Shown: positions 1 through 53,000 of the stretch, one piece after another
How the letters are laid out: each line of letters begins with the position of its first letter
Numbering within the stretch: position 1 is the stretch's first letter
From: an uncultured Acidobacteriaceae bacterium
GTDB lineage: Bacteria > Acidobacteriota > Terriglobia > Terriglobales > Acidobacteriaceae
Direction: 5' to 3'
DNA length: 64,000 nucleotides
Assembly: GCA_963721155.1 (NCBI GenBank)
Contig: CAVRID010000017.1
Location: forward strand, 863-64,862
Notes under the pieces: model-generated
Database searches by the model: none
Seen by the model: only the letters and a program-made list of their open reading frames with translations
Told to the model about the DNA's origin: nothing
Position numbers and translations under genes: made by a program

Positions 1-639
1 CACCTCTTCTTTAGCTGGGCCTGCGAATTGGCCCTGAAGCCTGCGGTCCTCGACGTGGTTGAATCCTTGGTTGGGCCGGAAATATTGTTGCATTCCACTC
101 GGCTTTTCTATAAGCATCCGAAAGACCCGGCTTATGTATCGTGGCATCTTGACGGTAGATACTCGGGCCTGAATTCCTACCAGGCTCCAACGGTGTGGAT
201 TGCGCTTACCGAGAGTAACCGGCAGAATGGCGGCCTGCGAATCGTACGCAGCTCCCACCGGTTCGCGCCGGCCTCCTTCGTCGAGAAACCCCACGCTGAT
301 AACCTTGAAAATCACGGGCAGGAAGTGGATGTGGACTCGACTCGTGCTGACATTGTGGATGTCTCCTTGCAACCGGGTGAAATGTCAGTTCATGACGTAA
401 ATGTGATTCACGGGTCAGAGGCCAACTCCTCCGATATTTCCCGGATCGGTTTCTCGATTTCGTACGTGACCCCAAAGGTTCCGACGTCGATCCTGCCCTT
501 GGTGCGCGCTCGGGGCACCGAGCCATGCGATCATCTGCGATTGGTCATGGCACCCGAACCGTGCAGATTGGAACACTCCATTGCTGCTCACGCAGCATTC
601 CTGCAGGCAAACAGTCTGCAAGCTCCACGCTTGGGATAG
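1..639 (+). CDS. Phytanoyl-CoA dioxygenase (PhyH) family Fe(II)/2-oxoglutarate oxygenase, 5'-partial (frame is open to the window edge)
   Basis: The reading frame is open from nt 1. Motifs 'VSWHLDGRYS', 'TVWIALTESNRQNGGLRIVRSSHR' and 'MSVHDVNVIHGSEAN' fit the PhyH HxD...H fold. Confidence 0.65.
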   Translation, partial: HLFFSWACELALKPAVLDVVESLVGPEILLHSTRLFYKHPKDPAYVSWHLDGRYSGLNSYQAPTVWIALTESNRQNGGLRIVRSSHRFAPASFVEKPHADNLENHGQEVDVDSTRADIVDVSLQPGEMSVHDVNVIHGSEANSSDISRIGFSISYVTPKVPTSILPLVRARGTEPCDHLRLVMAPEPCRLEHSIAAHAAFLQANSLQAPRLG

Positions 640-660
640 GCACGTCGCTCTACGCAGGAC

Positions 661-1788
661 TTGATGAGGCTTCTCTACGTTGTAGAACTGTGGCCAAGCA
701 CGCATGCCACCTACCTCTATCGCGAGATGCGGTGGATGCAAGAGCAAGGTCACGCCGTCGCCGTGGTATCGATCGAGCAAGGCGCCGGGCCAGGAGAGGC
801 TAATCTCACGCGCTATGGTCTGGAGAAGGTGCCGGTGTTGATACTGGGACTGCATCCGTCGCCCGAGGCTTTAATCGCGTTTGTAAACGCATTGCGTATC
901 GAAATAATGGATGCGCATGGGGGCCGCGATGCCGGAGAGCTGGCGTGCCAAGCTCACTTAACTACCGGCATCCCTTATGCCTTGCGCTTACACGGAGGCG
1001 ACGTCCATTCCGCCCCTTCCCCTGCCCTTGAACACACCCTGGATCACGCGGCCGTCATCTGCCCGGTGAGCCCGTTTCTAGTTGGCTTCCTTACCGGCCA
1101 GAATCCACCATCATCGCTGCCCGACGGATTGCCTGTTAAATTTGATCAGCAGAAAATGCGAATATGCCGTCATGGTCTCCCACAAGACGAGGTGGCGCTC
1201 CAACCAGTTCTCCAATCGGATAATCAGGAATTGATCGGCTCGGTTGGCCGGCTATCGCCTGTGAAACGTCAGTGTGATCTCTTGACTGCTCTAGCCATGC
1301 TCACTCCTGAATTTCCGCACCTGCGACTGCGATTCATCGGCGGAGGCGAATTGCTTTCAGACCTGGGCGCACAAGCCGAACGTCTCGGTATCGCCACAAG
1401 GGTCGAATTCACCGGCGACATGACGGTTGCGGATACCCTTCGGCTTATGCAGGATTTCAGCATCTACGTGCAGACTTCGGAATTGGAGGGTTTCTGCCTT
1501 GCCACTCTGGAGGCAGCCGCGCAGGGCTTACCTCTGCTCGTTTCTGAAACAGGGATTCATGGAGAGTGCGTCGAGTCAGGCGAGAATGGCTATCTCTTTC
1601 AGCCAGGCGACGTGCAAAGGTTGAGCCGTCGCTTGGCTGAATTAATCCGAAGCGGACGGGACTCCAGGCAGCGAATGGGTGCTGCGAGCCTTAGTATTGT
1701 CCGGCATCGCTTCGCCCTGGAAAGATTGATGTCCCGGCTGGAGGCCATCTATAGCGCGGTGCTCGCCAAGGCGCCGTTGCCAAGCTAG
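661..1788 (+). CDS. Glycosyltransferase family 4 (GT-B)
   Basis: 375-aa ORF. The C-terminal signature 'SELEGFCLATLEAAAQGLPLLVSETGIHGECVESGENGYLF' is the E-x7-E GT4 motif. Confidence 0.85.
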   Translation: MMRLLYVVELWPSTHATYLYREMRWMQEQGHAVAVVSIEQGAGPGEANLTRYGLEKVPVLILGLHPSPEALIAFVNALRIEIMDAHGGRDAGELACQAHLTTGIPYALRLHGGDVHSAPSPALEHTLDHAAVICPVSPFLVGFLTGQNPPSSLPDGLPVKFDQQKMRICRHGLPQDEVALQPVLQSDNQELIGSVGRLSPVKRQCDLLTALAMLTPEFPHLRLRFIGGGELLSDLGAQAERLGIATRVEFTGDMTVADTLRLMQDFSIYVQTSELEGFCLATLEAAAQGLPLLVSETGIHGECVESGENGYLFQPGDVQRLSRRLAELIRSGRDSRQRMGAASLSIVRHRFALERLMSRLEAIYSAVLAKAPLPS

Positions 1789-1846
1789 CCAGTTGCAATT
1801 CCGCAAGTCCAGACCTGGGGTTGTCTCCTCTGAACTAGGAGAAAAA

Positions 1847-2830
1847 ATGCGCATATTGCTTACCAGCCAGCACCGATACCCAGCCGACAGACACCCGGTG
1901 TGTAATGGCGGTCTTGCCTCATACCGAGTGCTTGACACTCTGGTAAAAGGCCTGGCAGAACTCGGACAAGACATCGTCTACCAGTTGGAACAAGGAGCGG
2001 CAGAGCCATTGCCGGCCGGGGTACGAGTGGCGTGCGAGACGGGCTGGCACGCGGATGTGATTCACGTTCAGGACCGGGACTTGACTGTTCCAATTAATTT
2101 GACGGACCCATGGGTGCGGACCTGCCATGCGGACCTTGCCGTTCGCGGCTTGTCGCGAAATTATGCTCGGGACAACTGGATATTTGTCTCCCGCACGCTG
2201 GCCGAGTCTTATGGCCGTAGCCGTCACGTTCTTAACGGAATCGATCCCGGCGACTATGAATATTCTCAGCAGAAAAAGAGCTATTTCCTGGTCATGTGTG
2301 ACTTGGGTCGTTTCCTGCGAAAGGGAGTCGATATTGCCATAACTCTGGCGGACATAACGTCACTGCCACTGGTAATTGCGGGATCCACCAGCGACGCTGC
2401 TGCCGACAGAAGCATTCGCGATCTTGCACGCGGCAAGCCCGTGACGTTCGCCGGCGAGGTCCAGGGAAAGCAGAAGGCAGAGCTCCTCACGGGAGCGAAA
2501 GCGCTGCTATTTCCGACGCGCATCAATGAAGCATTCGGGCTGGTGGTCGCAGAAGCGCTTATGTCGGGTACGCCCGTAATCGCCAGTGATTACGGCGCCT
2601 GCCCCGAGATGGTAACTCCGGATGTGGGATTCGTCTGCAAAGATATGAACGAGTTTGTTCACGCGATGGATCACGTGGGCGAAATCTCTCCGCAAGCATG
2701 CCGGCAAAAGGCCATGACGGATTTCCATTACCGGCGGATGGCGGCCAACTACCTGAAGGAGTACGAAATCGAAATCGGCGGAATTCAGCCCTCGAGACGT
2801 GAAACGAATGCATTTCCGGGAGCGACATAA
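1847..2830 (+). CDS. Glycosyltransferase family 4/1 (GT-B)
   Basis: ATG at 1847 follows AGGAG. The N-terminus is 'MRILLTS'. 'NEAFGLVVAEALMSGTPVIASDYGACPEMV' is a GT4 motif. Confidence 0.8.
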   Translation: MRILLTSQHRYPADRHPVCNGGLASYRVLDTLVKGLAELGQDIVYQLEQGAAEPLPAGVRVACETGWHADVIHVQDRDLTVPINLTDPWVRTCHADLAVRGLSRNYARDNWIFVSRTLAESYGRSRHVLNGIDPGDYEYSQQKKSYFLVMCDLGRFLRKGVDIAITLADITSLPLVIAGSTSDAAADRSIRDLARGKPVTFAGEVQGKQKAELLTGAKALLFPTRINEAFGLVVAEALMSGTPVIASDYGACPEMVTPDVGFVCKDMNEFVHAMDHVGEISPQACRQKAMTDFHYRRMAANYLKEYEIEIGGIQPSRRETNAFPGAT

Positions 2831-2842
2831 GCGCTCCGCTTA

Positions 2843-3916
2843 TCAGGCGAATGCGAGTATGGAGGTCGAGCGACGGTTGGTCGCCCAACTCGCCTTATAC
2901 GGATATCCCCCCCGCAGCAGATCATATTCCCTGAATCCAATGTCATAGGCATGGCGAATCCCTCCGTCCATCAGCAGTGTCCCGGTCGATATGTTCTCCA
3001 CCTCGGGCACGAAGCCACCGCTCCAGGTACACAGGCTGCCCGCCCCCACCATACAAAGATCCATGGCGACTACGCGATCGAACTTAACAAGTCCCAGGAC
3101 CTGCACGCGACCCTGGGCAAACAGCGCTGGCAGCACTTCTCCGACGAAAGCCTGGGCAGCGGCATTGGCGAAACAGCTCCTGGCACCCATGCGGCTCAGA
3201 TGCAAAGAGAGAAAAAGATCAGGCAAATGGGCGGGAGGCAATGTCTGCGGCGTCAGGACTGTCAAATTCAGGCCGGCTGCCGCCGCCTTCCGATACGCCC
3301 GGTTGAGACTTTTTCGATGGACTCTGCTTCTACTCATCAGATAGTCGTTATGGTTGGGCGGCAGCGAAACATATGAGTAAAAGTCGGTAGAGATGCTCGG
3401 AGATGGAAGTTCGGGGTCGGGTCCGATTTCCTTCAGGCTCTGAAGGCAGACGGAGTCTTGCCTAAATCTCGATAGTTTTGCCCTGTAGTCGCGTGACATT
3501 CGATACACGTACCGAAGCAGCACAGCGACGGCATCCGCATCGTCCTTTGTGGCAATCACATCGTTGTAGTCTGTGAAGCCGCGCACGAATTCAAGGGATT
3601 TTTCCTCAGGAATTATCAGCAGGGGCAAGACCGCTGACAGCTTTGAGTATCGCCGGGTCACCACCACGTGCGGTGTCACCGAGGGATAAGATTTGCAGTA
3701 TGCGATATACCAGCTTGAACAACTGAAAGCCCGGTTGCATTGTGTTTTCGCAAGGAGCTCATCCCATTCACGAGCGATCGCTCGGATCTGCGGGAGTTCG
3801 TTCAACAGCTCAAATTCAAGACCGCCCCAGCCGAGCTTCGACGTGCGCGGAGGTAGCAATTCCCCCGTTGTCACGGCCGCCTCTTCCCACGCCTCGCCAT
3901 GGGTCTCTCCGGTCAC
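2843..3916 (-). CDS. GNAT-fold acetyltransferase, CelD/BcsL (FemAB-like) family
   Basis: 357-aa ORF. The C-terminal 'GFREYDLLRGGYPYKASWA' is typical of CelD-like Acetyltransf_6 proteins found in EPS loci. Confidence 0.55.
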   Translation of the reverse strand: MTGETHGEAWEEAAVTTGELLPPRTSKLGWGGLEFELLNELPQIRAIAREWDELLAKTQCNRAFSCSSWYIAYCKSYPSVTPHVVVTRRYSKLSAVLPLLIIPEEKSLEFVRGFTDYNDVIATKDDADAVAVLLRYVYRMSRDYRAKLSRFRQDSVCLQSLKEIGPDPELPSPSISTDFYSYVSLPPNHNDYLMSRSRVHRKSLNRAYRKAAAAGLNLTVLTPQTLPPAHLPDLFLSLHLSRMGARSCFANAAAQAFVGEVLPALFAQGRVQVLGLVKFDRVVAMDLCMVGAGSLCTWSGGFVPEVENISTGTLLMDGGIRHAYDIGFREYDLLRGGYPYKASWATNRRSTSILAFA

Positions 3917-3922
3917 AGCTCT

Positions 3923-4810
3923 TTACCCTAACGAATGAAAGCCATCCACGCACGCCAGCCATTCGCCTTGCGTCACGGGGTGAGCGTCCAGATGATGCAT
4001 TCCGGTTGCGTTCCATCCGGTTCCGGCACCGGTCAGTATAGGGCTCTTGTCGCTCTCCCGCTCGGCATAAGCGTTCTCAGCTAAGTTGAGGACATCAACC
4101 GCTCTCACCCGGCTGCCATAAAGCGGCACCGAATCCTGAGCGTATCGGATCAGCCTGTTTTCCAGGGGCAGCACTCTTCCGGCGGGCCTAGCTCTTCGGG
4201 GATCGCCGCTCACCACTGGACTCGCGGTGTGCTCCTTCCACGGCCCTTCAAGATTGTCTGCACCGAAGAGGCTGAGAGAGTCATGAGCATGCGGAGCGGG
4301 ACACGCGTACATCCACCACCTGCCGCGAAAGCGGAATGGCGATGGGTCCGCAAACACGCCAGACAAGAGGGTCCGCACGAACCGCCATCGTGTGGGGAAC
4401 GATTCCGCCCGGTAAAGACACACCTCCGATAGAGGCAGCGTCTCGGGAATCATGTAATAGTCGCCCTGCCATTCAAAGACCGACGGATAGGACAGGTGAA
4501 ACGGCTCCCGCAGAATGACCTGTTCGTACTTCCAGTCGGCGCCGTCCGAGCTTGTTGCCAGAGCGATAACGCCTGTCTCCGTCTGCCGATCCATGACTTC
4601 GAAAAACATGTACCAAACATTCAGGTGCCTCACCATAAACGGATCGGCCACGAATGCCGCGGCAACATCGGAAACATCCGCTGCCGAGAGGACAGGGTTA
4701 GCGGCTTGTTCAGACGGTGAGAAACTATAAGGCGAGTTCCCCCTATAGATTCCGATAGCCCATACGCAGCGCCAGCGTATTCGAGGTTCCTGGGTCAGAC
4801 CTGCGGCCAA
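3923..4810 (-). CDS. GH43-like beta-propeller protein (family usually annotated as glucosamine inositolphosphorylceramide transferase-like)
   Basis: The long ORF 3923..4990 overlaps the MCO 3' end. The conserved part begins at 'WAIGIYRG'. A TTG at 4810 is preceded by GGGGA. Motifs 'FVADPFMV', 'WYMFFE' and 'YPSVFEWQGDYYMIPE' are present. The start is uncertain. Confidence 0.5.
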   Translation of the reverse strand: MAAGLTQEPRIRWRCVWAIGIYRGNSPYSFSPSEQAANPVLSAADVSDVAAAFVADPFMVRHLNVWYMFFEVMDRQTETGVIALATSSDGADWKYEQVILREPFHLSYPSVFEWQGDYYMIPETLPLSEVCLYRAESFPTRWRFVRTLLSGVFADPSPFRFRGRWWMYACPAPHAHDSLSLFGADNLEGPWKEHTASPVVSGDPRRARPAGRVLPLENRLIRYAQDSVPLYGSRVRAVDVLNLAENAYAERESDKSPILTGAGTGWNATGMHHLDAHPVTQGEWLACVDGFHSLG

Positions 4811-4862
4811 AATCTTGTTCCCCGAACCATTGTTCCCTCCAAAGTCCCTGCCGTCCGGAAAT

Positions 4863-7800
4863 CTACTGTTTCGCTCGCGTCCCACGTTGGACCAGGAATC
4901 GGTCGGAATTGTCTGGCGGACTGGGACGCTGTGAGGCTTTTTGCACAGCCGCCGCCGTCGTCCTCTGTGAAGCAACCAGGGCCGCTGCAAACAGCTCCGG
5001 CTTCGGACTGGGGCACGAAGCGCCCGTCGCTGAAGGTGTCACGCGGAAGACGCCCCAAATGCCGGCCGAACCTTCGGGCGTGGGAAAGCTTTCATAGAGG
5101 TAATCCCCCGGAACTTTGTTACTGCCGCCGGCACTGGCCAGGACCAGGTCGAAATGGTTTTGCGGACCAAAGCCGTCCCGCGCACCCATCCATTGTGAAT
5201 CTTGATTGCTGCCGATAGAGGCGCTCGGAACTCCGTTGGTCGAGACGTAAGGCTCTTCCGGCCATACGTGCCCGTGCAGTGTCCAGACGCTATCAGGGAA
5301 CTGGCCGGGGCCGTCGGGGTGCAGCATTCGAAACCGCACCGGAGTACCGGCCTGGGCGCAGAAGATTGGTGTCTGCGGATCGGCACTGTTCAGGCTGTTT
5401 GCAAACGCCTGACTTATGTCGATGAAATTGAAATTAACACTGGGGCTTTGGTAGCGATAGAACATCGGTTCAGTCCCAAAGTTTACAGACTGGAAATAGG
5501 ATCCGTTATTTAGATAAACATTGTCCTGAACCATGGTCACAAATTCACGGAAGAGGAGGTTCCCGCCGGAATCCTTGACGTCGACTGTGGTGTCGGGAAT
5601 CGCCGGCGACGTCGGCGTGCTGTTGCTGCAGGTCGAGGTTCCGGCTTGGCACCAAACCGAAGCTGCAGGCTCAATAATCAACGAGCCGATCAGCGCGTAA
5701 GGTTGCTGCTCCATTGGGTCCGAGGACAAAAGATTTACCGATCCAAGCTCAACCGGAGTTCCTGTCACCTGGCCATTTGCGCCCGTTGTCAGAGTTCCCG
5801 CATACCAGGAATAGGCCGTTTGCTTCCCCGGAGGTACCGTTTGTGCGGGGTTGAAGCCGACGTTCAGGCCGCTGTCCTTGGTCACGTCATATCCCACCAA
5901 CTGGGGATGGAGACCGACGTTCGGAGATGGGTAGAGGTTTACGGCGAGGTTGTTAATAGGAGAGTTGCTGTCGGGGGTATTAAAAACCCCACTTGTTGCG
6001 ACGAACTTATTGTAGAGAGTCACGTTGATGCATTCGCCGGCCACTGCTCGCAAAACGAGTGGGGCGGCAGGCGTTTGGGTCAGCGGATTGCCCTTGTTGT
6101 CTGCGAGAACGTACAGCAGCGGTGTTGTGACCTGGATCGCCTTTTGGCCGGCCTCTCCTGTGTTATACGTCACCGGTGCCTTCGCAGGGCTGATCGCCGC
6201 CACGTAATATTGGCGTTGAGGCGCATTTGCGGGACAGCTCTGGCTGCTCTGCGGCGGAGCAATGCCGCCGGAAGGATTGTTGGCGAGCGGGACGAGGTCG
6301 GTCAATGGTTTGCTGCCGCTCGCATTGTAGGCGCGCATCAGGCCCCAGTGGCCGTTGGCCAGATCGTCCACCCCCGAACCAGTCATATACAAATAGTCAG
6401 ATGCGGGCAGCGAAACACCCGGACTCGGATTCGATGCAGTCACCGGCATCGTAAACTGCATCTCGAAATGTTCCGAAATGCCCATCGCCTGGTTGTCGCG
6501 GTATCCGGAATTCTCCGCCGACGGTTCAAAGAGCCACTTGATCCCGTGAATGCTGAAGTTGTGGTTCATTAAGTAGCCCCCCACCAGTACCCGCAGTTGC
6601 ACGCGGTCATTCTGATACGCGCGCAGTAGCGGTGTGTAAGGGTCGGGCCCCTGGGCTCCGGTGAAGGGGATCGGAAATTCGAAGCCTGAGTGGCCGATAC
6701 TAGAACCAGCATTGGGCTGGCTGTTCAATGCCGCGGCGACTCTCGGGATGGAAGCGAACGCGTAGGAAAGATCGGTCGAGTTAGCAGGGCAAGTTGGCGC
6801 CACGCACGGGCCCGTCGAACCACTCCCGCCTACTCGCGTCGTGAGCGGTTCACTCCGATAATTCACGGTCGCCGTGCCCGTCGATTGACCACCCGTAATC
6901 AAGCAGGCGGCGGGTGTCGCACTTCCACAGTTCGAGGGATTGACCACCGCGCGAGAGTCGGCCCATCCCCACGGAGTGCCTGTTCCCGGAGGGTTCGGAT
7001 AACTGCCGCTGTAGGGTGTGCACCCAGCCAGTTGACTTTGCGTGGACAACGGATAGCAGAACGACGATGCCAAGCTGTTGCCGGAATAAGCGAGTGCCAG
7101 GTCGCCGAACTCCAGGGCGAATTCCCTGTAACTATCCTGGCCTCCATTGCCGTTCGTGACATTCGCCTTCCAGTCGGTGGGACCGCCGTCCGGTCGAACT
7201 GGATTCACCTTATATCCGCCCATAGTCTGGCCGGTCTCGGAATTTTGCCACGTGGCGTCGGGGGGTTCCACCAGGAGCCCGGCATAGAGGCCGGCCTGTT
7301 GATGCGTGGAAGGACCGAAGTGATCGTGTGTAAACACGGTCCGGATAGTACGGTCCTGCCCCTTGCCATCGTTCTGGCACGGAGGCCATGGGCAACCGTC
7401 CAAAGGATCTGCATACCAGCGCTGGATCGTGGTTTGCGCGCCGAACCATTGGTTGCAGGGTGACTGTGTGGAATTCGGGCAGATTTCTGTCGGCGGAGGC
7501 TGTGCGGTCAGAGTCGCCGGTTGGCCCGTCAACGGTAGCCATTTGCCCCCTGAAGTTTGTAATGCTTTGATTCGCTCCTGTACTTCCTGCGGGCTGAAAG
7601 TACCGTCTTCGTAATTGAAGCCATTCGCGGCGCCATCCGAAGCCAGCACATCGAATTTCACGAGGTGAATATGCTGCCCGAGGATATCGGTCGGGGTCTG
7701 CACCTGAAAATCGTCCAACTGGTAATAGTTTGGCACCAGATTGGTCTGCCAGTACTCCACGATATCGCCACTGTTTGCCCGGAAGAAGAAGGGCTGGGGC

Positions 7801-10250
7801 ATGCGTGCACCGGTCATGGTAGGCATGACGTCGTCCCACAACGTGATAAAGCGCTCCTGGGGGTAGTGCGTTCCAGTCTTACTGAAGACTACGTCTCGCT
7901 GGATATTTGCTCCCCTATACTGGCGGACATTGCCCACGGCGTTGCCGTTATCGTCCACTCCCGGGTCGGCGAAGGGTGCACCTTGTTGTGAGCCCCACTG
8001 ATTTTCCGCCTGTCCAGGTCCTTTGCGCGGTAAACCGTTCACGATGAAGCTCGCCGGCTTCCCGTCGGGACTGAAACTGGGATGTTGCCGGGTGCCAAAG
8101 TAAGCCATTGCTGCCTGCTCAACCGTTGTGCCCGCTTCCGGCAATTGCTGGGCTATCAGGGTGTCGGTGTCCTTGCTGAAGTCCCACACGTTGAATTGAT
8201 TATTGCTGATATGGCCGCTCAATACGACATGTCGGGGGAGTCCGCCATCGAGATACTGCTTGTTCCCGTAACTGTCTGTGAGATAGGCGAAATCAAGCGG
8301 AGGATGAGGAGCGCGATGACCCGCGATCCCTGGCACGAAGAACGGGAATCCGGGATTCCCGGGTCCCAAGACCTGGGCCTGATAGCCAATCTGCTGATTT
8401 CCACCTGGGATTGTCGCCGCGACGATGCTCACCTTTTCCGGAAGCGGAGCCATGCCCAAGGTTGGCACCGGAACTACTGCCGGTATCGGCGTGCCGGTTG
8501 GTATTTCGCCATCGGGCAGTGCTCGGGCGCCGGCTACTGGCCGTCCGTTGCCGTCTAGGACGGTCCCCGCCTCAAACACGTCATGTACACGCCACAACGA
8601 CCACATCCCGGCTGCAAAATGGGGATAGAAATGGCAATGAAAGATGGAGTCTCCAGCAGTTTGGTTCCGGTTACCGCTTCCGTTGTAATCCACTTCCAGA
8701 GTAAAAGCGGCTCCGGGACTGATCATCTGACTATCGAGGTAACTGCTGTTCGGGTCATTCGGTGTGTGCAGCCATTGATGCGCGTGCTGGTGGTGCACAT
8801 GAGTCAGAAAGGCGCCGACGTTGAGAATGCGAAACTTGACATGGTCCTGGACATAGCTGTGATACACATTCGAAGGATCGTCGGGGAAGTAGGCGAGGGT
8901 GGCTTTCGGTGCAGCGAGCGGAGCAGTGGGAGCGGGCGTCGTGCTACCCGAGACCACCCACTCAGTGAATTGATTCTCGAAAGTCGACAATAGGTTTGGA
9001 GACGGCGGCGAGTTGCTCGTCTGATTATCAGGACGGTTGGCCGGGATATCGACGACCATGGCCGGATCGCCCAGCGCCCATGAACTTAGGAAAAATTCTT
9101 CAAAGCGGCAGTCGACACAGCTGGCACTCGCCCCTACCCCCAGCCGGTTCGCCACCACCTCCGCTCCGATTCCGCCGGTACCGTAGTTAATGCCAAGGTT
9201 ATCCTGCCCTGGCGAAAGTGTCGCACCCAAACCGGTTTTAATTGGGTAAAACTGTGTAAACGCCTGAATAGCTTCGAACATTTCGTGATAATGGATAGTA
9301 AATTCGCGGAAAGGCTGGTTCCGCCCGGGAGAGGGGGGTATCGGATCAAACTCATTCGCGGGAAATGGACCTTGATTGGGACCGGTGACGATAGCCGTTA
9401 GGTCGGTGTAGATCAGGTTGTTATTGTCATCCACCATCTTGAGGATGAACTGGCCTGACCGCGGGCCCGAATTGAATTTTGCCAGGTAGTTAAGAATCGG
9501 GTGACCGTCCGGCGTCGTCCCTGTCGTGGCTTGGGCCAGGTCGGCCTGCGTCACTTGGCTGCGGTAGTATTCTGCATTCTTAGGCTCTACAATTACGGCA
9601 CCGAACAACCCGGCGGTGACCTGGCCGCCGCCGTTGGTCGATCCGCCGAAGGTCGCGCCCATGCTGTGAAGCAGATAGGTTCCCTCCTGGGCTGCAAGCA
9701 AGGTGTAGGTGGCCGAGCCACCAGGCTTGACTAAACTTCCTATGCCTCCAGAAGCCCCGTTTTGGCCTACCCACGAGCCGTCGTCGCTGCTACTCGTAGC
9801 CAGTTCCATGCCGTTTACATGGATGGACGCTTCCTTAGTACAGGGCGACAAACTCGCTATTTCGGACTTGTCAGACGTGCAGACTCCCGCAGTAGGCAGG
9901 GGTATCAGCCAGTTGGTAAAGTTGATTTTGAGACACTCCCCCTGGTTGACCCGCAAGACGATAGGACGCGGCCGTTTGTCCGACCGCAGTACAGCGTTGC
10001 CAGCCCCAAGCGGCTGACTGGCATTCAAAGCCACGACATCGCTTTTCAGTGCAAATATCATTCCTTGGGGCATCGCAGCGCCCAGACGGTTCAGCATGAA
10101 AGGCTGATTGAGTGCAACGACGGTGGCGGTGATTGTGTTCTGGGCCGTGCAGGAGATGCTAGATGACTGGGCGACGCCACAAGCTGAAGTCAGGATTGTC
10201 GCAACGAGACAGAAAAACGAGAATCTTAACCCGATTCCTAGTCTAGACAT
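4863..10250 (-). CDS. Giant secreted multidomain multicopper oxidase (MofA/MnxG-like size class)
   Basis: 1795-aa ORF with an N-terminal signal ('FFCLVATILTSAC', possible lipobox). A type-1/type-3 Cu motif 'HCHFYPHFAAGM' lies at aa 538-549 (HCH at nt 8631-8639). Other motifs are 'HVHHQHAHQWLH' (aa 484-495), 'HIHLVKFD' (aa 860) and a Cys-less 'HDHFGPSTHQQAGLY' (aa 975). Confidence 0.85.
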   Translation of the reverse strand: MSRLGIGLRFSFFCLVATILTSACGVAQSSSISCTAQNTITATVVALNQPFMLNRLGAAMPQGMIFALKSDVVALNASQPLGAGNAVLRSDKRPRPIVLRVNQGECLKINFTNWLIPLPTAGVCTSDKSEIASLSPCTKEASIHVNGMELATSSSDDGSWVGQNGASGGIGSLVKPGGSATYTLLAAQEGTYLLHSMGATFGGSTNGGGQVTAGLFGAVIVEPKNAEYYRSQVTQADLAQATTGTTPDGHPILNYLAKFNSGPRSGQFILKMVDDNNNLIYTDLTAIVTGPNQGPFPANEFDPIPPSPGRNQPFREFTIHYHEMFEAIQAFTQFYPIKTGLGATLSPGQDNLGINYGTGGIGAEVVANRLGVGASASCVDCRFEEFFLSSWALGDPAMVVDIPANRPDNQTSNSPPSPNLLSTFENQFTEWVVSGSTTPAPTAPLAAPKATLAYFPDDPSNVYHSYVQDHVKFRILNVGAFLTHVHHQHAHQWLHTPNDPNSSYLDSQMISPGAAFTLEVDYNGSGNRNQTAGDSIFHCHFYPHFAAGMWSLWRVHDVFEAGTVLDGNGRPVAGARALPDGEIPTGTPIPAVVPVPTLGMAPLPEKVSIVAATIPGGNQQIGYQAQVLGPGNPGFPFFVPGIAGHRAPHPPLDFAYLTDSYGNKQYLDGGLPRHVVLSGHISNNQFNVWDFSKDTDTLIAQQLPEAGTTVEQAAMAYFGTRQHPSFSPDGKPASFIVNGLPRKGPGQAENQWGSQQGAPFADPGVDDNGNAVGNVRQYRGANIQRDVVFSKTGTHYPQERFITLWDDVMPTMTGARMPQPFFFRANSGDIVEYWQTNLVPNYYQLDDFQVQTPTDILGQHIHLVKFDVLASDGAANGFNYEDGTFSPQEVQERIKALQTSGGKWLPLTGQPATLTAQPPPTEICPNSTQSPCNQWFGAQTTIQRWYADPLDGCPWPPCQNDGKGQDRTIRTVFTHDHFGPSTHQQAGLYAGLLVEPPDATWQNSETGQTMGGYKVNPVRPDGGPTDWKANVTNGNGGQDSYREFALEFGDLALAYSGNSLASSFCYPLSTQSQLAGCTPYSGSYPNPPGTGTPWGWADSRAVVNPSNCGSATPAACLITGGQSTGTATVNYRSEPLTTRVGGSGSTGPCVAPTCPANSTDLSYAFASIPRVAAALNSQPNAGSSIGHSGFEFPIPFTGAQGPDPYTPLLRAYQNDRVQLRVLVGGYLMNHNFSIHGIKWLFEPSAENSGYRDNQAMGISEHFEMQFTMPVTASNPSPGVSLPASDYLYMTGSGVDDLANGHWGLMRAYNASGSKPLTDLVPLANNPSGGIAPPQSSQSCPANAPQRQYYVAAISPAKAPVTYNTGEAGQKAIQVTTPLLYVLADNKGNPLTQTPAAPLVLRAVAGECINVTLYNKFVATSGVFNTPDSNSPINNLAVNLYPSPNVGLHPQLVGYDVTKDSGLNVGFNPAQTVPPGKQTAYSWYAGTLTTGANGQVTGTPVELGSVNLLSSDPMEQQPYALIGSLIIEPAASVWCQAGTSTCSNSTPTSPAIPDTTVDVKDSGGNLLFREFVTMVQDNVYLNNGSYFQSVNFGTEPMFYRYQSPSVNFNFIDISQAFANSLNSADPQTPIFCAQAGTPVRFRMLHPDGPGQFPDSVWTLHGHVWPEEPYVSTNGVPSASIGSNQDSQWMGARDGFGPQNHFDLVLASAGGSNKVPGDYLYESFPTPEGSAGIWGVFRVTPSATGASCPSPKPELFAAALVASQRTTAAAVQKASQRPSPPDNSDRFLVQRGTRAKQ

Positions 10251-10645
10251 CGGAGAGGTCCTTTCGCTAGGTACAACTTGTCCGAGGCCGAGCCCAAGAT
10301 CCGCCTCACTACATCTGGGCCACTTAAGTGCAGGATAGATAGCAACTTAGATTTCAGAGACCATATGCCCGTTCGTGTCGCGAAGTCAAGATATTTCTGA
10401 CTTAGAAATTGGCGTCCGTCGGCATTGCATTTTAGAGGTGTTTAGTTATCTGTATGGAGACGTTGTAGGTCTGAGAATGCGCGTGTGTTGGAACATAAGT
10501 CACTTCTACATTGCCAAGGCGCACTTCGGCCTATAAAACCAGATCTAGAGGTTGTCTGATATACCTTGGTGTGGCTTCGGCGAAGGGGATGAGGCCGGCT
10601 TCGATGGCGAACCTCTCCCCGCAGCATTCCCGAGGGCTTGAGCTT

Positions 10646-12280
10646 ATGAGGTCGTATTCAGCATTAGCGTCGATAGCTCTATTGGCATTTTCGGCCATAC
10701 TGGCTGACCAAGCTCAAGCTCAGAAGGGGAGCAACACCGAAGCTTCCCGTGATGATCACCCGACTGGATTTCACACTTCAGTTATTCACGAGGGAATCAC
10801 CATTAACGTTGCGATCCAGCCGCCACTTGACGCAGACCCCGGCGCCGCTCTCCTGGCGGGACACCAAGCAGTCTTTCGCCTGGCTTTATCTGATTCAGCG
10901 ACGGGGACGGCGCTACGCGGCCTGCATCCCTTGCTCTGGATTGGGCAACGCATGGAAGCAGGTCCGAATAGCTGCAAGACTCGGATCCAGTCCTACCTTG
11001 GCGGCGGGCTCTTTGTGCCGCGGCCTGATCTCAGCCTCGACAGCTATACTCTCGTGATCCTGAACAGTGATTCCAGCGTTGAAGTTGCTGCTCCTCACTT
11101 CGAATCGGGTAAGTCGCTGCTGCTGGCCCGAGTGCCTCTCCCGGGGCCCGGCGAAGATTGGGTTTTCGCAGAACAGCGCTCGCACCTCTTCGTCTCTGTG
11201 CCAACAGCCGACCGTGTGGCGATGATAGATACCAATTCCTGGCGTTTGTCGGTACTAACGAAAATCCGTCAACCGGCTCGCGTAGCGATCCAACCAGATG
11301 GCCGCAATGTATGGGTTGCTTATGGAGAAGTTGGCAACTCATCGGCGGATTCCGGAGTAGCAGCGCTCTCGGCGCAAAGCGGCAAGGAGCTTGCTCAATT
11401 GCGCACGGGGCGTGGAGGCCACGAAATTGCGTTCAGCAGTGACAGCCGTTATGTCTTCGTGACTAACCGCAGCGATAACACCGTTTCGCTGATCGATGTC
11501 GCTGCTTTACGAAAGGTGAAAGACTGGAGGGTACCCGCTCCAGTCTCGGTGGGTTTCTCCAGCCTTGCTGGCCTCGCATATGTTACCGCCGAGAATGGAA
11601 CGATATTCGGGATCGATGCAGAAAAGAATGCCATAACATCACAGCTATCTCTCGATCGAGGGTTAGGACGTATTCTGTTCTTTGGTGACAGTCGGTTAGG
11701 AATAGTTCTCAATCCCGAGATAGGGCGCATCTACATTTTTGATGCATCACGGAATCGCGTTGTTCAGACGGGCCTCGTATCCGCAAAACCCGATCGCATC
11801 GTCTTATCCGACCAGTTTGCTTACTTGCAATCCCTGGACTATGACACCGTTACGTTGCTGCCTCTCCCTCAACTAGGTACGGTGGACACACCCATTCCCA
11901 TGATCGAATTGCCATCGGGGGAGCGTCAACACCGAAGCGAAGTCGAGATCACGCTGGCGAACTCCATCGCTCCGGTGCCCGGAGAGAATTCCATTGTTAT
12001 AGCAAATTCTGCCGATCGCTCCGTCCACTATTACATGGAAGGCATGGCAGCACCAATGGGAACCTATAGCAACCACGGCGGGGAACCCCGTGCCGTTATC
12101 GCCATGGATAGTAGCCTGAGGGAAACATATCCGGGCATCTACGAAGCCAGCGCGAAGCTGCCTGCCGCCGGCGACTATGAGTTGGCAATCTTTCTGGACA
12201 GCCCACGCATTGGACAATGCATGCACGTGACGTTTAGCGCCCCAGGTGATGTCAACTCTGCGCCTCGGCAGGGTCCTTAG
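10646..12280 (+). CDS. Secreted YVTN-repeat beta-propeller protein
   Basis: ATG at 10646 gives the signal peptide 'MRSYSALASIALLAFSAILADQAQA'. 'RYVFVTNRSDNTVSLIDV' is a YVTN-type repeat. The gene diverges from the MCO gene. Confidence 0.7.
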   Translation: MRSYSALASIALLAFSAILADQAQAQKGSNTEASRDDHPTGFHTSVIHEGITINVAIQPPLDADPGAALLAGHQAVFRLALSDSATGTALRGLHPLLWIGQRMEAGPNSCKTRIQSYLGGGLFVPRPDLSLDSYTLVILNSDSSVEVAAPHFESGKSLLLARVPLPGPGEDWVFAEQRSHLFVSVPTADRVAMIDTNSWRLSVLTKIRQPARVAIQPDGRNVWVAYGEVGNSSADSGVAALSAQSGKELAQLRTGRGGHEIAFSSDSRYVFVTNRSDNTVSLIDVAALRKVKDWRVPAPVSVGFSSLAGLAYVTAENGTIFGIDAEKNAITSQLSLDRGLGRILFFGDSRLGIVLNPEIGRIYIFDASRNRVVQTGLVSAKPDRIVLSDQFAYLQSLDYDTVTLLPLPQLGTVDTPIPMIELPSGERQHRSEVEITLANSIAPVPGENSIVIANSADRSVHYYMEGMAAPMGTYSNHGGEPRAVIAMDSSLRETYPGIYEASAKLPAAGDYELAIFLDSPRIGQCMHVTFSAPGDVNSAPRQGP

Positions 12281-12351
12281 CAGTCTCTTCTGTCTGCAAT
12301 ACGGTTTTGCGATTGAGTCAATGTTTGGCGCAGGAAAGGTAGCAGAATGGA

Positions 12352-13920
12352 TCATTGAGCTGGTTGCGATGTCGTCTCCAGAATAGAAACTCGTTGGGCA
12401 CCCCAATGCTGCTTGGGAGCGTAAGTGAGGGGTAGACATACACCCGTCTGAAATTCTCGCAAGCTCTCGAGTGCAGTAATTAATCCCGCACGGGTGAGAC
12501 TTTTTCCCGCATTTCTGAGGCCCTCGACAAGAAGCGCCGATGCGCAATAGGCGGACTCCTGGAGCTCCAAGTCTAAAGGAGCTATGTGGTGCCTGTCGGC
12601 AAATACAGAGTAAACCTTTGAATCCGGCCACGCCGGGGAGGATAGAACAACCTTACCCCTGAACTCATGCCCAGCACTCTTCAATCGAATGCGGGAGGGA
12701 GAATGCGCGAGTAAGAGTACGCCGCTCCAGTAATCCCTCGTTGCCTGACCCAAAAACGCGGCTGCGTCGCTTGCCGATCCCAGGAAAAGAACCGCTCCTA
12801 CGCCGTTTTGGCTGACATGGTGAGTCACGCTCACCAATGTCGTCTTGCCTGCAAACGGCAGTCGTTTCAAACCGCGCCCGGTCCGCTCGGTGTAGAGATT
12901 CTCCAGATAGGCAAGCGTATCCTGAGATACCTGTCCCTCGGGGTAGACAATCGCCAGGTCGCCGTTCCAATCGCGCTTATCTGTAGCAGACGTCAGCAGC
13001 GCGGCCGCCATTTCCCTCGTCGATACCGAAAGGTAGAAAACTCTGGAATCCTCGGAAGGTTCTACCTCCATCTCGGAAGTCAACGGACCTACTATGGGGA
13101 GATCGTCGGCGGTCACAGTAGGATTGCCTTGGCCTATTCCCGAGGCGGCGGGCACATACGAGCTGACGAATGCCAATACATCGTCATCTTGTCTCTGGCG
13201 CGCGTCCAGTCGACGAGCAGGTTGCACGGCAGCATCCGCTCTAGTTACGACCAAGCTGAGGCGCCGGTTGTAAATGCCACCGTTTTGGCTGATATCATCA
13301 AAGTAGCCTTCAATCACCTGCTCAATCGACCTTCCGAGCTGTCCCGCCGGAAGAATGCTGCCGATGCGGATAATGCTTTCGCTCACGCCGGGAGCTCGTT
13401 CGTTTCCCAGGCACTGCATGTACGCGACCAGAGCATCCAGGTCAGCTTGCGCCATCTGAAACCTTGGCATCTGCTCAGCCAGCGTGTTTCCCGCTGGATC
13501 TATTCCCTCGCGAATTGCTCGCTTCAGGCTTTCTTGAGTGAAGGCAGCGTGTCTTCGTCCGTCAAGATGTTGGTGCCCTTGAGGCGAGCTGAGGCTCTTC
13601 CAGCTGATATCTCCTGACGACGTACCTCGTTCAGTCGTTCCCAATCCGCCAGAGCCATGACAAGAAGCACAACGAAATGCCGACGTCACTGCCTCGGTAT
13701 CTCCTACCCTGACTCGGAGACCCTCGCCGGAGACAGTGGTGCCTTGCAGGTAAATTTCTTTTCCTTGGCGTTGTCGCGCGGACAACGTGCACTGCGCTTC
13801 GGTTGCGTCGAGTCCACTAAGCGCGAACGCAGCTGTGAGCAGAGCAAAAAATGCCAGGTTGACTACAGGATGTGATCTTCGTTTTGAATGCAAGTCAGGA
13901 AACTCACCAGTCTTCCGCAT
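12352..13920 (-). CDS. Cytochrome c domain fused to a type-1 periplasmic solute-binding (Leu/Ile/Val-binding-like) domain
   Basis: It has a signal/TM segment, a single haem motif 'CASCH', and then a ~350-aa PBP1-like region. Confidence 0.65.
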   Translation of the reverse strand: MRKTGEFPDLHSKRRSHPVVNLAFFALLTAAFALSGLDATEAQCTLSARQRQGKEIYLQGTTVSGEGLRVRVGDTEAVTSAFRCASCHGSGGLGTTERGTSSGDISWKSLSSPQGHQHLDGRRHAAFTQESLKRAIREGIDPAGNTLAEQMPRFQMAQADLDALVAYMQCLGNERAPGVSESIIRIGSILPAGQLGRSIEQVIEGYFDDISQNGGIYNRRLSLVVTRADAAVQPARRLDARQRQDDDVLAFVSSYVPAASGIGQGNPTVTADDLPIVGPLTSEMEVEPSEDSRVFYLSVSTREMAAALLTSATDKRDWNGDLAIVYPEGQVSQDTLAYLENLYTERTGRGLKRLPFAGKTTLVSVTHHVSQNGVGAVLFLGSASDAAAFLGQATRDYWSGVLLLAHSPSRIRLKSAGHEFRGKVVLSSPAWPDSKVYSVFADRHHIAPLDLELQESAYCASALLVEGLRNAGKSLTRAGLITALESLREFQTGVCLPLTYAPKQHWGAQRVSILETTSQPAQ

Positions 13921-13935
13921 GCAAATTCCCGGCGC

Positions 13936-14637
13936 TCAGCGCGTGTCAGCCATGCTAAGAATGCAGTCCGCCAGATTCTGCGACGAACCTATCCCATTAA
14001 CGCGAGCCCACGAATTTGCAGATTGGTTCACGATGAGCACGAGAACAGAGTGATTTTGGCTTTGGTTCCCAGCCTCCCCCAGTGCCTGTAACAAGTTGTC
14101 GATTTCCGCCTTCCGACCGTTAACAGCGGTAACAAGAGTCCACCCGGGCTTGGCCTGGAATTGCGCAGCCCACGCTCGTAGCGCGGCAGGTGTATCGTTA
14201 ACCGGATCGACGCTGATCGAGATCAGCCTTATATCTCTTCCCAGCCGGTCACCGAGGAGCTTTTGCAGCTTACCAAAGGTTGCCCCCATCAGTGGGCAAG
14301 TCGTTCCGCACGAGGTATAGATGAAGTTAATCGCTACAGTCCGGCCTGCCACCAAATCAGTTCGGAAGCGCACTTCCCTGTTATTCTGGTCGACCAGTTC
14401 TGAATCCGGAATGGTATGTCCCTGGAACGAAGGGCAACCTTTCGCTTTCCCAGCATCCTCGACCTGCCGTTGGCTGGTTGAGGATTGAGACCAGAGTCGA
14501 GCGGGCACGAACGGGATTGCGAGCAGGGTCAAGTAGCAAATGTTGCGCTTAATGGAATGGAGCATCGCACTGATTTTGGTATCGCGCACCCGTGGCATGT
14601 TACCTCTCCGTTGGTCAGCGTGCTGCACATCATGCAA
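13936..14637 (-). CDS. SCO1/SenC family copper chaperone / thiol-disulfide protein
   Basis: 'INFIYTSCGTTCPLM' is a CxxxC motif in a thioredoxin fold, and there is a downstream conserved His ('NHSVLVLIV'). The true start may be an internal Met ('MLHSIKRN'). Confidence 0.85.
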   Translation of the reverse strand: MHDVQHADQRRGNMPRVRDTKISAMLHSIKRNICYLTLLAIPFVPARLWSQSSTSQRQVEDAGKAKGCPSFQGHTIPDSELVDQNNREVRFRTDLVAGRTVAINFIYTSCGTTCPLMGATFGKLQKLLGDRLGRDIRLISISVDPVNDTPAALRAWAAQFQAKPGWTLVTAVNGRKAEIDNLLQALGEAGNQSQNHSVLVLIVNQSANSWARVNGIGSSQNLADCILSMADTR

Positions 14638-14661: not shown

Positions 14662-15399
14662 CTATGGCTCAGTCGCAGCTACTGAATCGTCGGCTTTGAT
14701 GGGCTTCCTTCTGTCTCGTCGTTGGCGAAACCGCTCTTCTTCGGCCCAGCCTGCTGTACTGATATTTGCTCCGTGGGTTACGTAGCATGTGGTCGCGCGC
14801 GCTCCCACGATGTTTCCACGAAAACCCTTCTGGACGGCACTCATCACAACATCATCCGGCGTCCCCGGGTCGGCGGATCTCAGCGCTTCTTCGTAAGCGA
14901 CCGCAAACCGACGATTAAAGCATACCGAGTCCGACATGCAACCGGTCGGGTTAAGGTCGAACGGCGCGGCTGGAAAGTAAACGTGTTTACTGCGATATGG
15001 CAGGACAAGGATCTCCGCCAACCTGTTAATCGTGTAGTCAAACCCTTGTAGTTGTTCAACTCCGTGCTCGATATGACTTGCGTAAAAAAAATCGTCATCG
15101 TCGAACTTAAAAAACACCTCACAACCCGACTCGATCAGGCGCATCAATGGGACGCGATAAAATTCCGGTTCCTCTAATCGAGCCGGCGTGAAGTCATGAA
15201 TAACCTCCACCCCGGAGTTTGCGACAATTTCGAGCACGTCCTTTACCGCCCAAAGATAGCTGCGCTCGTGGTTGTTTTCATGAATAGCAATCACCGCGGG
15301 TCGCGTGTGCTGTGCCATGAGTTGAAGAACAGCAAGCCGAAGGAACAAAGGATTGCAATGCGTCGGAAGATAAACGCCGATTTTGTTCAATGTCGCCAT
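14662..15399 (-). CDS. Hypothetical GT-A-like protein (possible glycosyltransferase)
   Basis: ATG at 15399 avoids overlap with the upstream GT2 gene. An acidic 'FKFDDDDFF' DxD-like motif is present. No firm family was recognised. Confidence 0.4.
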   Translation of the reverse strand: MATLNKIGVYLPTHCNPLFLRLAVLQLMAQHTRPAVIAIHENNHERSYLWAVKDVLEIVANSGVEVIHDFTPARLEEPEFYRVPLMRLIESGCEVFFKFDDDDFFYASHIEHGVEQLQGFDYTINRLAEILVLPYRSKHVYFPAAPFDLNPTGCMSDSVCFNRRFAVAYEEALRSADPGTPDDVVMSAVQKGFRGNIVGARATTCYVTHGANISTAGWAEEERFRQRRDRRKPIKADDSVAATEP

Positions 15400-15437
15400 A
15401 TTTTGGTCTAAGGGGACTTTTGACTTCTCCTCGGAGC

Positions 15438-16241
15438 TTAGCCGTTCGGCGGTGGTGTCTCCAAGATTGCGGTGTCCTGAATATCCGGATACACGCGTTC
15501 GCCGAACATATCTTCCACGTACTTGAATCCCCACTTTTTCAAGAACACGTTTTTATCTTTCTGGTTCATTCTAAATTTCTGGTATTCACGGGACACCTCG
15601 AAGGGAGCTGAGCGATGCTCGACGATGCTACTGGGACAATAGACAACTTTTACACCCGCCTCTTTCGCACTCAAAAAAAAATCCTCATGCTCATAGCAAA
15701 CATTGATGTTCTCCTCCCAACGTACCCGACGGGCAAGCTCCGTTCTTGCGATGAAAAAGTTGAATGTCAAATCCGCTTCATAATAGGTGATTTCACGATG
15801 CAGGAGAGGCTTGCTGCGATCGATATCGCGATATTTCAATCCCCCGTCCGGCATGGGTACAAAGGTGGCCTCGTAATGTTGCGGCTCTCCCCGCTGGATA
15901 ACGGTTCCGCCCGCAAGATCAGCAATCGCCATCATCGAAACCAAGTCATGTAGCCTTGACTGCGAAATATAGCTGAAATCATCATCGCCGAGAAGAAAGA
16001 AGGGAGTGCTACAAGCATCGATCAGAGCGTTCCGGCCGACCGAGACGCCTGAGTTCCAAGGCAACCGAATATATTTCTCCACGCCCAAGCCCCTGAGTCT
16101 GCTCTCCTTTTCGCTCGTGAAATGACCGTCATCGGCAACCATGATCAGGATGCCGGGATAATGCTGTCTCAAGGTGCTTACGCAGTTGAAGCAAAAATCG
16201 TCTCTCAAGAATGTTTTGATTAACGCAGTAACATCTTTCAT
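15438..16241 (-). CDS. Glycosyltransferase family 2
   Basis: The N-terminal 'ALIKTF...ILIMVADDGH' and 'LLGDDDF' are GT2 (GT-A) DxD signatures. Confidence 0.75.
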   Translation of the reverse strand: MKDVTALIKTFLRDDFCFNCVSTLRQHYPGILIMVADDGHFTSEKESRLRGLGVEKYIRLPWNSGVSVGRNALIDACSTPFFLLGDDDFSYISQSRLHDLVSMMAIADLAGGTVIQRGEPQHYEATFVPMPDGGLKYRDIDRSKPLLHREITYYEADLTFNFFIARTELARRVRWEENINVCYEHEDFFLSAKEAGVKVVYCPSSIVEHRSAPFEVSREYQKFRMNQKDKNVFLKKWGFKYVEDMFGERVYPDIQDTAILETPPPNG

Positions 16242-16303
16242 CGTTTGAACACCGCGCCCATCGCTTTTGGATTTAAGCTCTCGCCCGAGTATTGCACGGA
16301 CAA

Positions 16304-48115: not shown

Positions 48116-48191
<76 letters not shown>

Positions 48192-52940: not shown

Positions 52941-53000
52941 TAACGTACACGCGGTTCAGGTCATCGAATGAAGTGAGTAGTAAAGAAGCGTCAACCTGTA

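Follow-up and report, generated by a model that had tools for sequence, protein, structure and literature searches.

A window of 64,000 nucleotides from an uncultured Acidobacteriaceae bacterium (assembly GCA_963721155.1, contig CAVRID010000017.1) encodes a giant multicopper oxidase, and it is essentially certain that this protein is a six-domain enzyme of the MnxG family with one functional copper set and a conserved cluster of accessory genes. Our analysis favors its assignment as a long-form (Pseudomonas-type) MnxG, a secreted oxidase of ~190 kDa in which one unit is equipped with copper and for which Mn(II) is the most likely substrate, and we consider this assignment probable. Members of the MnxG family have already been annotated in many soil bacteria, and the architecture, copper sites, and partners described below match those of the Pseudomonas and Bacillus systems. 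The gene and its predicted export signal are located as follows, in coordinates of the window.

4863..10250, minus strand: mnxG-like gene encoding a six-domain multicopper oxidase precursor (open reading frame, ORF; NCBIfam NF041487; PDB 9bxa)
10170..10250, minus strand: signal peptide, residues 1 to ~27, with a doubtful lipobox LTSAC (read from the sequence by eye)

A first-pass annotation of this DNA, made from the sequence alone, had proposed a single ORF of 1795 aa at 4863-10250, and this holds: the ORF starts with an ATG and runs on the minus strand from 10250 to 4863, encoding a protein of 191 kDa. A plus-strand reading of the same interval was ruled out, its translation being full of stops. 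The N terminus of the oxidase, MSRLGIGLRFSFFCLVATILTSAC, is signal-peptide-like as judged by eye, and the acidobacterial enzyme is probably exported (secreted). Measured against the consensus [LVI][ASTVI][GAS]C at the signal-peptide end, the candidate lipobox L-T-S-A-C24 is weak, with Thr at -3. A Cys at this position is retained only in a relative 87% identical to the oxidase (LISTC, with an atypical Thr at -1), the remaining homologs having AxA-type signal-peptide cleavage sites instead.

The placement of the oxidase in the MnxG family is supported by sequence profiles and by structure. NCBIfam NF041487, “manganese-oxidizing multicopper oxidase MnxG”, was the sole strong family match (1094.4 bits, E = 0), with the second-best NCBIfam family, CopA, reaching 15.7 bits. 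The alignment to NF041487 falls into three stretches, the first of which pairs residues 37-611 collinearly with profile positions 2-589 and continues through the largest insertion of the oxidase relative to Bacillus MnxG. Homologs from Duganella, Massilia, Aquimarina, Pyxidicoccus, and a Burkholderiaceae metagenome-assembled genome (MAG) score 1089-1198 bits, so that the oxidase is as near to the profile as its proteobacterial relatives are, and 13 of 13 diverse relatives match the family. MnxG of Bacillus sp. PL-12 (9bxa_A) was the sole match among PDB sequences (E = 1.2e-76, 7 collinear blocks), and the same chain, deposited as “Mnx H340A complex”, was the top Foldseek match for both halves of the predicted structure (E = 6e-32 and 4e-58). 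The kinship to Mn oxidases that the first-pass annotation had drawn from the size class of the protein is therefore sound as far as MnxG is concerned, and in NCBIfam, PDB, and Foldseek alike the best match is MnxG and not a non-Mn oxidase. The kinship is to MnxG in particular; a link to MofA was neither found nor tested for. Pfam applied to the whole protein detects Cu-oxidase_3 at residues 111-225 (E = 5e-8) and a sub-threshold Cu-oxidase_2 at 458-551. The picture of one or two Cu-oxidase domains obtained from Pfam alone, in whole-protein and eight-segment scans, is misleading, as profile-profile and structural comparisons reveal six.

These six cupredoxin domains form three tandem two-domain units. 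They were compared by hhalign using slices of an alignment of 70 full-length homologs, which share 45-55% overall identity, and are listed here together with one additional segment, with residue numbers referring to the oxidase.

9486..10145, minus strand: cupredoxin domain 1, odd type, residues 36-255; H144 kept, HxH pairs absent (Pfam Cu-oxidase_3, hhalign)
8556..9413, minus strand: cupredoxin domain 2, even type, residues 280-565; holds the sole blue-copper site, with one half of the ligands for the trinuclear cluster (hhalign, weak Pfam Cu-oxidase_2)
8016..8453, minus strand: segment X, residues 600-745; additional stretch rich in beta strands, separating domain 2 from domain 3 (hhalign, Pfam, AlphaFold2)
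7221..7943, minus strand: cupredoxin domain 3, odd type, residues 770-1010; other half of the trinuclear-cluster ligands (hhalign)
6306..7178, minus strand: cupredoxin domain 4, even type, residues 1025-1315; no Cys at the type 1 (T1) copper position (hhalign)
5631..6233, minus strand: cupredoxin domain 5, odd type, residues 1340-1540; one His kept (H1448, in GLHPQ) (hhalign)
5025..5603, minus strand: cupredoxin domain 6, even type, residues 1550-1742; no Cys at the T1 position, H1659-G-H1661 kept (hhalign)

Domains of like type recognize one another in hhalign, with the following scores, and pairs of an odd with an even domain gave no score.

domains 1 and 5: probability 99.3%, E = 1e-20
domains 3 and 5: probability 97.6%, E = 2.8e-12
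domains 1 and 3: probability 90.4%, E = 1.4e-06
domains 4 and 6: probability 99.1%, E = 7.3e-19
domains 2 and 6: probability 97.7%, E = 2.5e-12
domains 2 and 4: probability 94.0%, E = 1.4e-07

Counterparts of these domains can be located in Bacillus MnxG, where the domain 2 region aligns to residues 251-381, domain 3 to 428-610, and domain 5 to 877-966, the C-terminal third of the oxidase as a whole aligning to three separate parts of the Bacillus protein. Domain 2 contains an insertion of ~130 aa and domain 4 a Cys-rich insertion of ~110 aa. Segment X adds ~120 residues relative to Bacillus MnxG, in which it is largely absent; neither Pfam nor hhalign comparison with the six domains gave a match to it, and AlphaFold2 models it as strands and one helix. 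The AlphaFold2 models were built in two overlapping pieces from 41-sequence alignments. The first, residues 26-1060, has a predicted local distance difference test score (pLDDT) of 75 and a predicted template modeling score (pTM) of 0.84, and the second, residues 740-1760, has a pLDDT of 79.5 and a pTM of 0.86; long insertions are modeled with low confidence. After 9bxa_A, the Foldseek ranking continues with two-domain laccases for the N-terminal half and with factor V/VIII and ceruloplasmin for the C-terminal four domains. The first-pass annotation had anticipated several cupredoxin domains, only some of them with a blue copper, and had named fewer than four as a result that would speak against it; hhalign and Foldseek yield six domains, one of which carries a blue-copper site.

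The ligands of the copper sites fall into four motifs, all in domains 2 and 3, located by alignment.

8778..8801, minus strand: copper motif 3, H484-V-H486-H487-Q-H489-A-H491, HxxHxH type
8604..8639, minus strand: copper motif 4, H538-C539-H540-x3-H544-x4-M549 (T1 Cys/His/Met and two type 3 His)
7665..7673, minus strand: copper motif 1, H860-I-H862
7302..7328, minus strand: copper motif 2, H975-D-H977 plus H983

The motifs described earlier at residues 538-549, 484-495, 860-862, and 975-983 are all present at those residues. H484, H486, H487, H489, H538, C539, H540, H544, and M549 in domain 2, together with H860, H862, H975, H977, and H983 in domain 3, are identical in 70/70 homologs, and H491 is present in 67/70; with residues identical throughout the 70 homologs, these motifs are not chance occurrences. 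The HCH at 538-540 is the only one in the whole oxidase, and a T precedes H484. One interpretation offered with the motifs must be revised. The HDH...H at 975-983 had been taken for a Cys-less blue-copper variant, but the domain that holds it is of the odd type, which has no blue-copper sites; the motif is thus not a degenerate blue-copper site and instead supplies the second HxH of the trinuclear cluster. Bacillus MnxG reads THVFHYHVHQW at motif 3, FHIHFVKFD at motif 1, and FFHDHLFANSHQQ at motif 2, and H544 of motif 4 aligns with its residue 340, which is Ala in the H340A mutant 9bxa. Domains 4 and 6 have other residues at the positions of C539 and the flanking His; since neither has an equivalent of C539, the protein holds one blue copper and one trinuclear cluster. 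By analogy with canonical multicopper oxidase motifs, on which our assignment of individual His to individual coppers is modeled, motif 3 would provide one T1 ligand and two ligands of the trinuclear cluster.

Outside these motifs, the copper-less domains retain a number of potential ligands. H1230, E1260, H1261, and E1263 in domain 4 and H1661 in domain 6 are identical in 70/70 homologs, H144 in domain 1 is found in 67/70, H1659 in domain 6 in 54/70, and H1448 in domain 5 is supported by the family consensus and by the Bacillus alignment. These residues occupy the places in the domain pairs 4/5 and 6/1 to which the pseudo-threefold symmetry would map the cluster site, and they are partly common to Bacillus MnxG, which has HLHGH where the oxidase has H1659-G-H1661. 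The insertion in domain 2 carries a conserved C378-x-x-C381 pair (C-V-D-C, followed by EEFFL; window 9108-9119, minus strand) that is present in 68/70 homologs and has the counterpart CPDCDSEE in Bacillus MnxG. This pair could form a disulfide or a metal site.

The second line of support for a Mn oxidase comes from the genes upstream of the oxidase, which are arranged as follows.

10251..10645, no strand: divergent intergenic region between the oxidase and beta-propeller genes, 395 nt (gene starts)
10646..12280, plus strand: YVTN/YncE-like beta-propeller, secreted, ~544 aa from M46 of ORF 10511-12280 (sub-threshold Pfam YNCE, NCBIfam YVTN/PQQ-propeller)
12352..13920, minus strand: cytochrome c (C84-A-S-C-H) fused to Peripla_BP_6 (Pfam Cytochrome_CBB3/Cytochrom_C and Peripla_BP_6)
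13936..14637, minus strand: SCO1/SenC-family copper chaperone, C110-G-T-T-C114 (Pfam SCO1-SenC, E = 6e-16)

The start of the beta-propeller gene at 10646 was set from a 545-aa ortholog. The SCO1/SenC gene and the gene for the cytochrome c-substrate-binding protein (SBP) fusion make up a two-gene unit on the oxidase strand, convergent with the beta-propeller gene. Conservation of these neighbors was assessed by tblastn of the window proteins against 80 related loci, the best 80 of at least 572 GTDB species that encode a relative, with no Pseudomonas among them.

Beta-propeller homolog: 55/80 loci, within 10 kb of the oxidase, E down to 1e-110
SCO1/SenC homolog: 44/80 loci
Cytochrome c-SBP homolog: 40/80 loci

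Many of the loci without partner genes are cut by contig ends. Most loci follow the Pseudomonas order (oxidase, propeller, SCO1, cytochrome c-SBP), and the arrangement of the window recurs in its nearest relatives, namely loci L001, L003, and L007 and the 87%-identical L082.

The divergent intergenic region offers few clues to regulation. One sigma-70-like site is present at 10251-10645, which is no more than chance gives; promoter and terminator scans at both ends of the oxidase gene found nothing above chance, and no sigma-54 -24/-12 box was seen by eye in the intergenic region. The L082 counterpart of this region is 88% identical to it, a level close to that of the coding DNA, and this identity is therefore neutral on the presence of a small gene or regulatory element. 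A 54-aa ORF is called in the intergenic region of L082 (3182-3346, minus strand of that locus).

A comparison with the two MnxG systems that have been studied experimentally shows both extensive agreement and some differences in composition. P. putida GB-1 MnxG (PputGB1_2447) is likewise a long form of ~1.8-1.95 kaa with four copper motifs. In the published P. putida GB-1 operon, mnxG is accompanied by a YVTN beta-propeller gene, two SCO1/SenC genes, a gene for a cytochrome c-ABC substrate-binding protein, and a SurA-like gene (PMC11409713 Table 4; PMC8218464 Fig. 2). Three of these four partner families, the propeller, SCO1/SenC, and the cytochrome c-SBP fusion, are adjacent to the oxidase gene here, in an uncultured Terriglobia-like host. 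In P. putida, mnxG leads an operon whose genes share a single orientation, whereas here a single SCO1 gene precedes the cytochrome c-SBP gene, followed by the propeller gene, convergent with this pair and divergent from the oxidase, and then by mnxG. The role of P. putida MnxG as a Mn oxidase has genetic support (cited in PMC11409713).

Bacillus MnxG resembles the oxidase in its six cupredoxin domains, in its single T1 copper in domain 2 (H340 corresponding to H544), in the placement of the trinuclear-cluster motifs in domains 2 and 3, in a CxDC-x2-EE motif, and in the His remnants of domains 4, 5, and 6. At 1217 aa it is much shorter, the acidobacterial protein having at least 430 extra residues in five insertions, as well as longer termini. 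The Bacillus complex, MnxG-E3F3, is 211 kDa in PDB 9bxa, and we know of no propeller, SCO1, or cytochrome c-SBP set in the Bacillus mnxA-G operon. Bacillus Mnx was purified as MnxG-E3F3, with mnxE and mnxF located just upstream of mnxG and their products required as subunits (PMC5622069). The corresponding position in the window is occupied, beyond the 395-nt region, by the divergent propeller gene.

A more distant resemblance is to ceruloplasmin and the A-domains of factors V and VIII, which also consist of three tandem two-domain units and match domains 3-6 with template modeling scores of ~0.41-0.43 and E ~1e-20, although sequence identity is ~10%. In ceruloplasmin, blue copper occupies domains 2, 4, and 6, and the trinuclear cluster is located between domains 1 and 6. 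In contrast, the oxidase has the blue-copper Cys in domain 2 only, a single His (H144) in domain 1, and its cluster motifs in domains 2 and 3.

Taken together, these features suggest how a long-form MnxG of this kind would work. A single T1 copper in domain 2 would be bound by H484, C539, H544, and M549, and the trinuclear cluster would be assembled from H487, H489, H538, and H540 of domain 2 and H860, H862, H975, and H977 of domain 3, where O2 would be reduced to water. Oxidation of Mn(II) would take place outside the cytoplasm and yield Mn(III)/Mn(IV), one electron being removed at each step. Copper probably comes from the neighboring SCO1/SenC protein, as its family role suggests and as the presence of SCO1/SenC in both Pseudomonas Mn-oxidase operons would agree with (PMC11409713), and the cytochrome c-SBP fusion and the beta-propeller would act as conserved partners of the oxidase. 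Cytochrome c maturation genes are needed for Pseudomonas Mn oxidation (PMC11409713), and it is tempting to speculate that the c-type cytochrome of the operon is related to this need. That the enzyme oxidizes Mn(II) is suggested by its homology to two validated enzymes and by the common operon, and on these grounds we think it rather likely.

Several observations weigh against Mn(II) as the substrate. The curated equivalog cut-off of NF041487 is 3100 bits, and the oxidase, at 1094 bits, reaches only about a third of it; this cut-off delimits a narrow Pseudomonas clade, however, because proteobacterial and other homologs likewise score 1089-1198 bits. Identity to Bacillus MnxG is 19-22% over the Foldseek alignments. 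No MnxE/MnxF-like genes are present upstream of the oxidase, as judged by position only, no SurA-like gene is found among the scanned neighbors, and only one of the two SCO1 genes in the Pseudomonas operon has a counterpart here. Multicopper oxidases are promiscuous, and only two members of the MnxG superfamily have experimental support. In addition, the literature searched held no report of a Mn-oxidizing isolate or enzyme from the Acidobacteriota, and a search for Mn oxidation by cultured carriers of the gene (Duganella, Massilia) returned nothing useful.

The main rival is an enzyme with the same MnxG fold and copper sites but a substrate other than Mn(II), such as Fe(II), Cu(I), or phenolic/humic compounds, with Mn oxidation as a side activity; this possibility deserves to be taken seriously, though we think it unlikely. 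It would accommodate a score under the equivalog cut-off, and the SCO1 neighbor points to Cu(I) or copper homeostasis, but SCO1 is here one member of an accessory gene set conserved from the Mn-oxidizing Pseudomonas operon. Relatives matching the N-terminal 1035 aa at E <= 1e-30 fall into 771 clusters at 50% identity, which shows how large and diverse the family is, and a single MAG may hold several paralogs (loci L030, L043, and L064); this diversity and these paralogs suggest functional divergence. Set against such divergence, the catalytic ligands and many residues common with Bacillus MnxG are invariant. A preprint by Kurdi/Geszvain warns that homologs need not be Mn oxidases and describes only poor Mn oxidation in vitro by CueO and CotA; the oxidase has no similarity to CueO, CopA, or laccases beyond the generic fold, with CopA at 15.7 bits.

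A reading of the protein as a decayed and catalytically inactive remnant, now a large surface protein whose oxidase function has been lost, is very improbable. The absence of copper ligands from four of the six domains and the long low-confidence insertions could be read this way, but the complete T1 and trinuclear set is invariant in 70 homologs at 45-55% identity, the same set, present once, suffices for activity in Bacillus MnxG, and the ORF is intact both here and in L082. A MofA-, MoxA-, or McoA-type oxidase, or a laccase/bilirubin-oxidase fusion merely sharing the MnxG size class, is hardly credible, as it would draw on size and on the one or two generic Cu-oxidase domains seen by Pfam alone, whereas the strongest matches by far are MnxG models and structures, hhalign reveals a six-domain triplication, and the motifs, with 3 and 4 in domain 2 preceding 1 and 2 in domain 3, follow the order of Bacillus MnxG and not that of three-domain laccase-like enzymes.

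Downstream of the oxidase, the first-pass annotation had named a GH43-like gene and a CelD-like acetyltransferase gene on the same strand. Both identities are confirmed, the first as a GINT1_N protein (E = 2e-54, with GH43 only at E = 4e-4, below the cut-off) and the second as an Acetyltransf_6 (CelD-like GNAT) protein. As partners of the oxidase, they do not stand, the true partners lying upstream at 10646-14637. Their conservation among the same loci is as follows.

GINT1_N protein homolog: 4/80 loci
Acetyltransf_6 homolog: 3/80 loci

With such low counts, a functional link between either gene and the oxidase was rejected, though their adjacency is kept in the 87%-identical relative, and both are lineage-specific bystanders. 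ORF 3923-4990 (minus strand, 355 aa) overlaps the 3' end of the oxidase gene by 128 nt; its ortholog in L082 is called at 256 aa, so that its true start is probably near 4690, with no overlap. The four-gene mnx-like unit is flanked on both sides by glycosyltransferase and glycan-synthesis genes (28-4990 and 14662-17764), with two GT4/GT1 glycosyltransferases, Acetyltransf_6, and GINT1_N on one flank and a GT2 glycosyltransferase on the other. The left-hand layout recurs in the 87%-identical relative, with a PhyH gene in addition. Elsewhere in the window, ORF 53144-54262 is immediately preceded by two tandem nadA riboswitch matches (53000-53054 and 53063-53132, plus strand), both exceeding the gathering score at 58 and 52 bits, and there is one tRNA gene at 48119-48190 (minus strand; Rfam, 72 bits).

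Relatives of the oxidase are numerous. At least 2774 clusters at 90% identity match it at E <= 1e-10, and among the matches listed the nearest cluster is 87% identical and the next at most 55%. Acidobacteriota account for 58 of the best 80 GTDB species, as counted from record titles, and the others include Proteobacteria, Bacteroidota, Myxococcota, Chloroflexota, Gemmatimonadota, and Actinomycetota. Cultured carriers identified in this way are Pyxidicoccus fallax DSM 14698, Aquimarina sediminis w01, Massilia frigida CCM 8695, Duganella sp. CT11-25, and Undibacterium spp. A neighbor-joining tree of the core region places the oxidase beside L082, Ca. Angelobacter, and two Terriglobia MAGs, with acidobacterial clades interleaved with proteobacterial and Bacteroidota clades. 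A plasmid search returned distant matches only, labeled “hypothetical” or “multicopper oxidase domain-containing”. Two MAGs carry MnxG-like paralogs on different branches of the tree: the Thermoanaerobaculia MAG SMAG_U12094 has L030, L043, and L064, each with a propeller gene directly downstream, and the Pyrinomonadaceae MAG SMAG_U3205 has L023 and L047, on which tblastn found no propeller homolog. Locus L066 (DYGR01000032.1, labeled Candidatus Methanoperedens nitroreducens) has a full-length MnxG-like gene with a weak propeller homolog downstream, and this archaeal-binned contig reflects either mis-binning or lateral transfer.

In the literature, a 2022 survey assigned 98% of Mn-oxidase homologs to the Proteobacteria, Actinobacteria, and Firmicutes and never mentioned the Acidobacteria. 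MAG studies have reported mnxG in further phyla, and a single Acidobacteriota MAG is listed as “MnxG only” in a rock-varnish study from 2026. The label “manganese oxidase” is already attached to many family members at the Joint Genome Institute, including acidobacterial MAGs, and also in MnGenie. The earlier statement that no acidobacterial enzyme of this kind has been characterized is thus correct in that we found none tested, but the family as such has already been annotated in acidobacterial MAGs.

A broader proposal combines three elements: the Acidobacteriota are a major overlooked reservoir of functional MnxG, the insertions of the long forms replace MnxE3F3, and the remnant His/Glu residues are metal sites. 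Taken jointly, these are decidedly doubtful. Such a reservoir may span the Terriglobia, Thermoanaerobaculia, and Pyrinomonadaceae/Blastocatellia. The ~430-580 extra residues of the long-form enzymes may take the place of the Bacillus MnxE3F3 accessory hexamer, and H1230, E1260, H1261, E1263, and H1448 (domain pair 4/5) and H1659, H1661, and H144 (domain pair 6/1) may be extra Mn or Cu sites, which may be used in Mn(III) handling or oxide nucleation.

In conclusion, the analysis has yielded a conserved four-gene cluster, the dominance of Acidobacteriota among the close relatives of the oxidase, and the identification of cultured carriers as useful by-products, and many of the 58 acidobacterial matches carry the full accessory cluster. 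Few natural oxidants are stronger than Mn(III) and Mn oxides, which influence the breakdown of litter and humus, the scavenging of metals, and the degradation of pollutants, and the known bacterial Mn oxidizers belong mostly to the Proteobacteria, Firmicutes, and Actinobacteria. Should these enzymes oxidize Mn, a phylum that ranks among the most abundant in soil would join the Mn oxidizers, and the Acidobacteriota would be unrecognized producers of Mn(III) and Mn oxides in soils.

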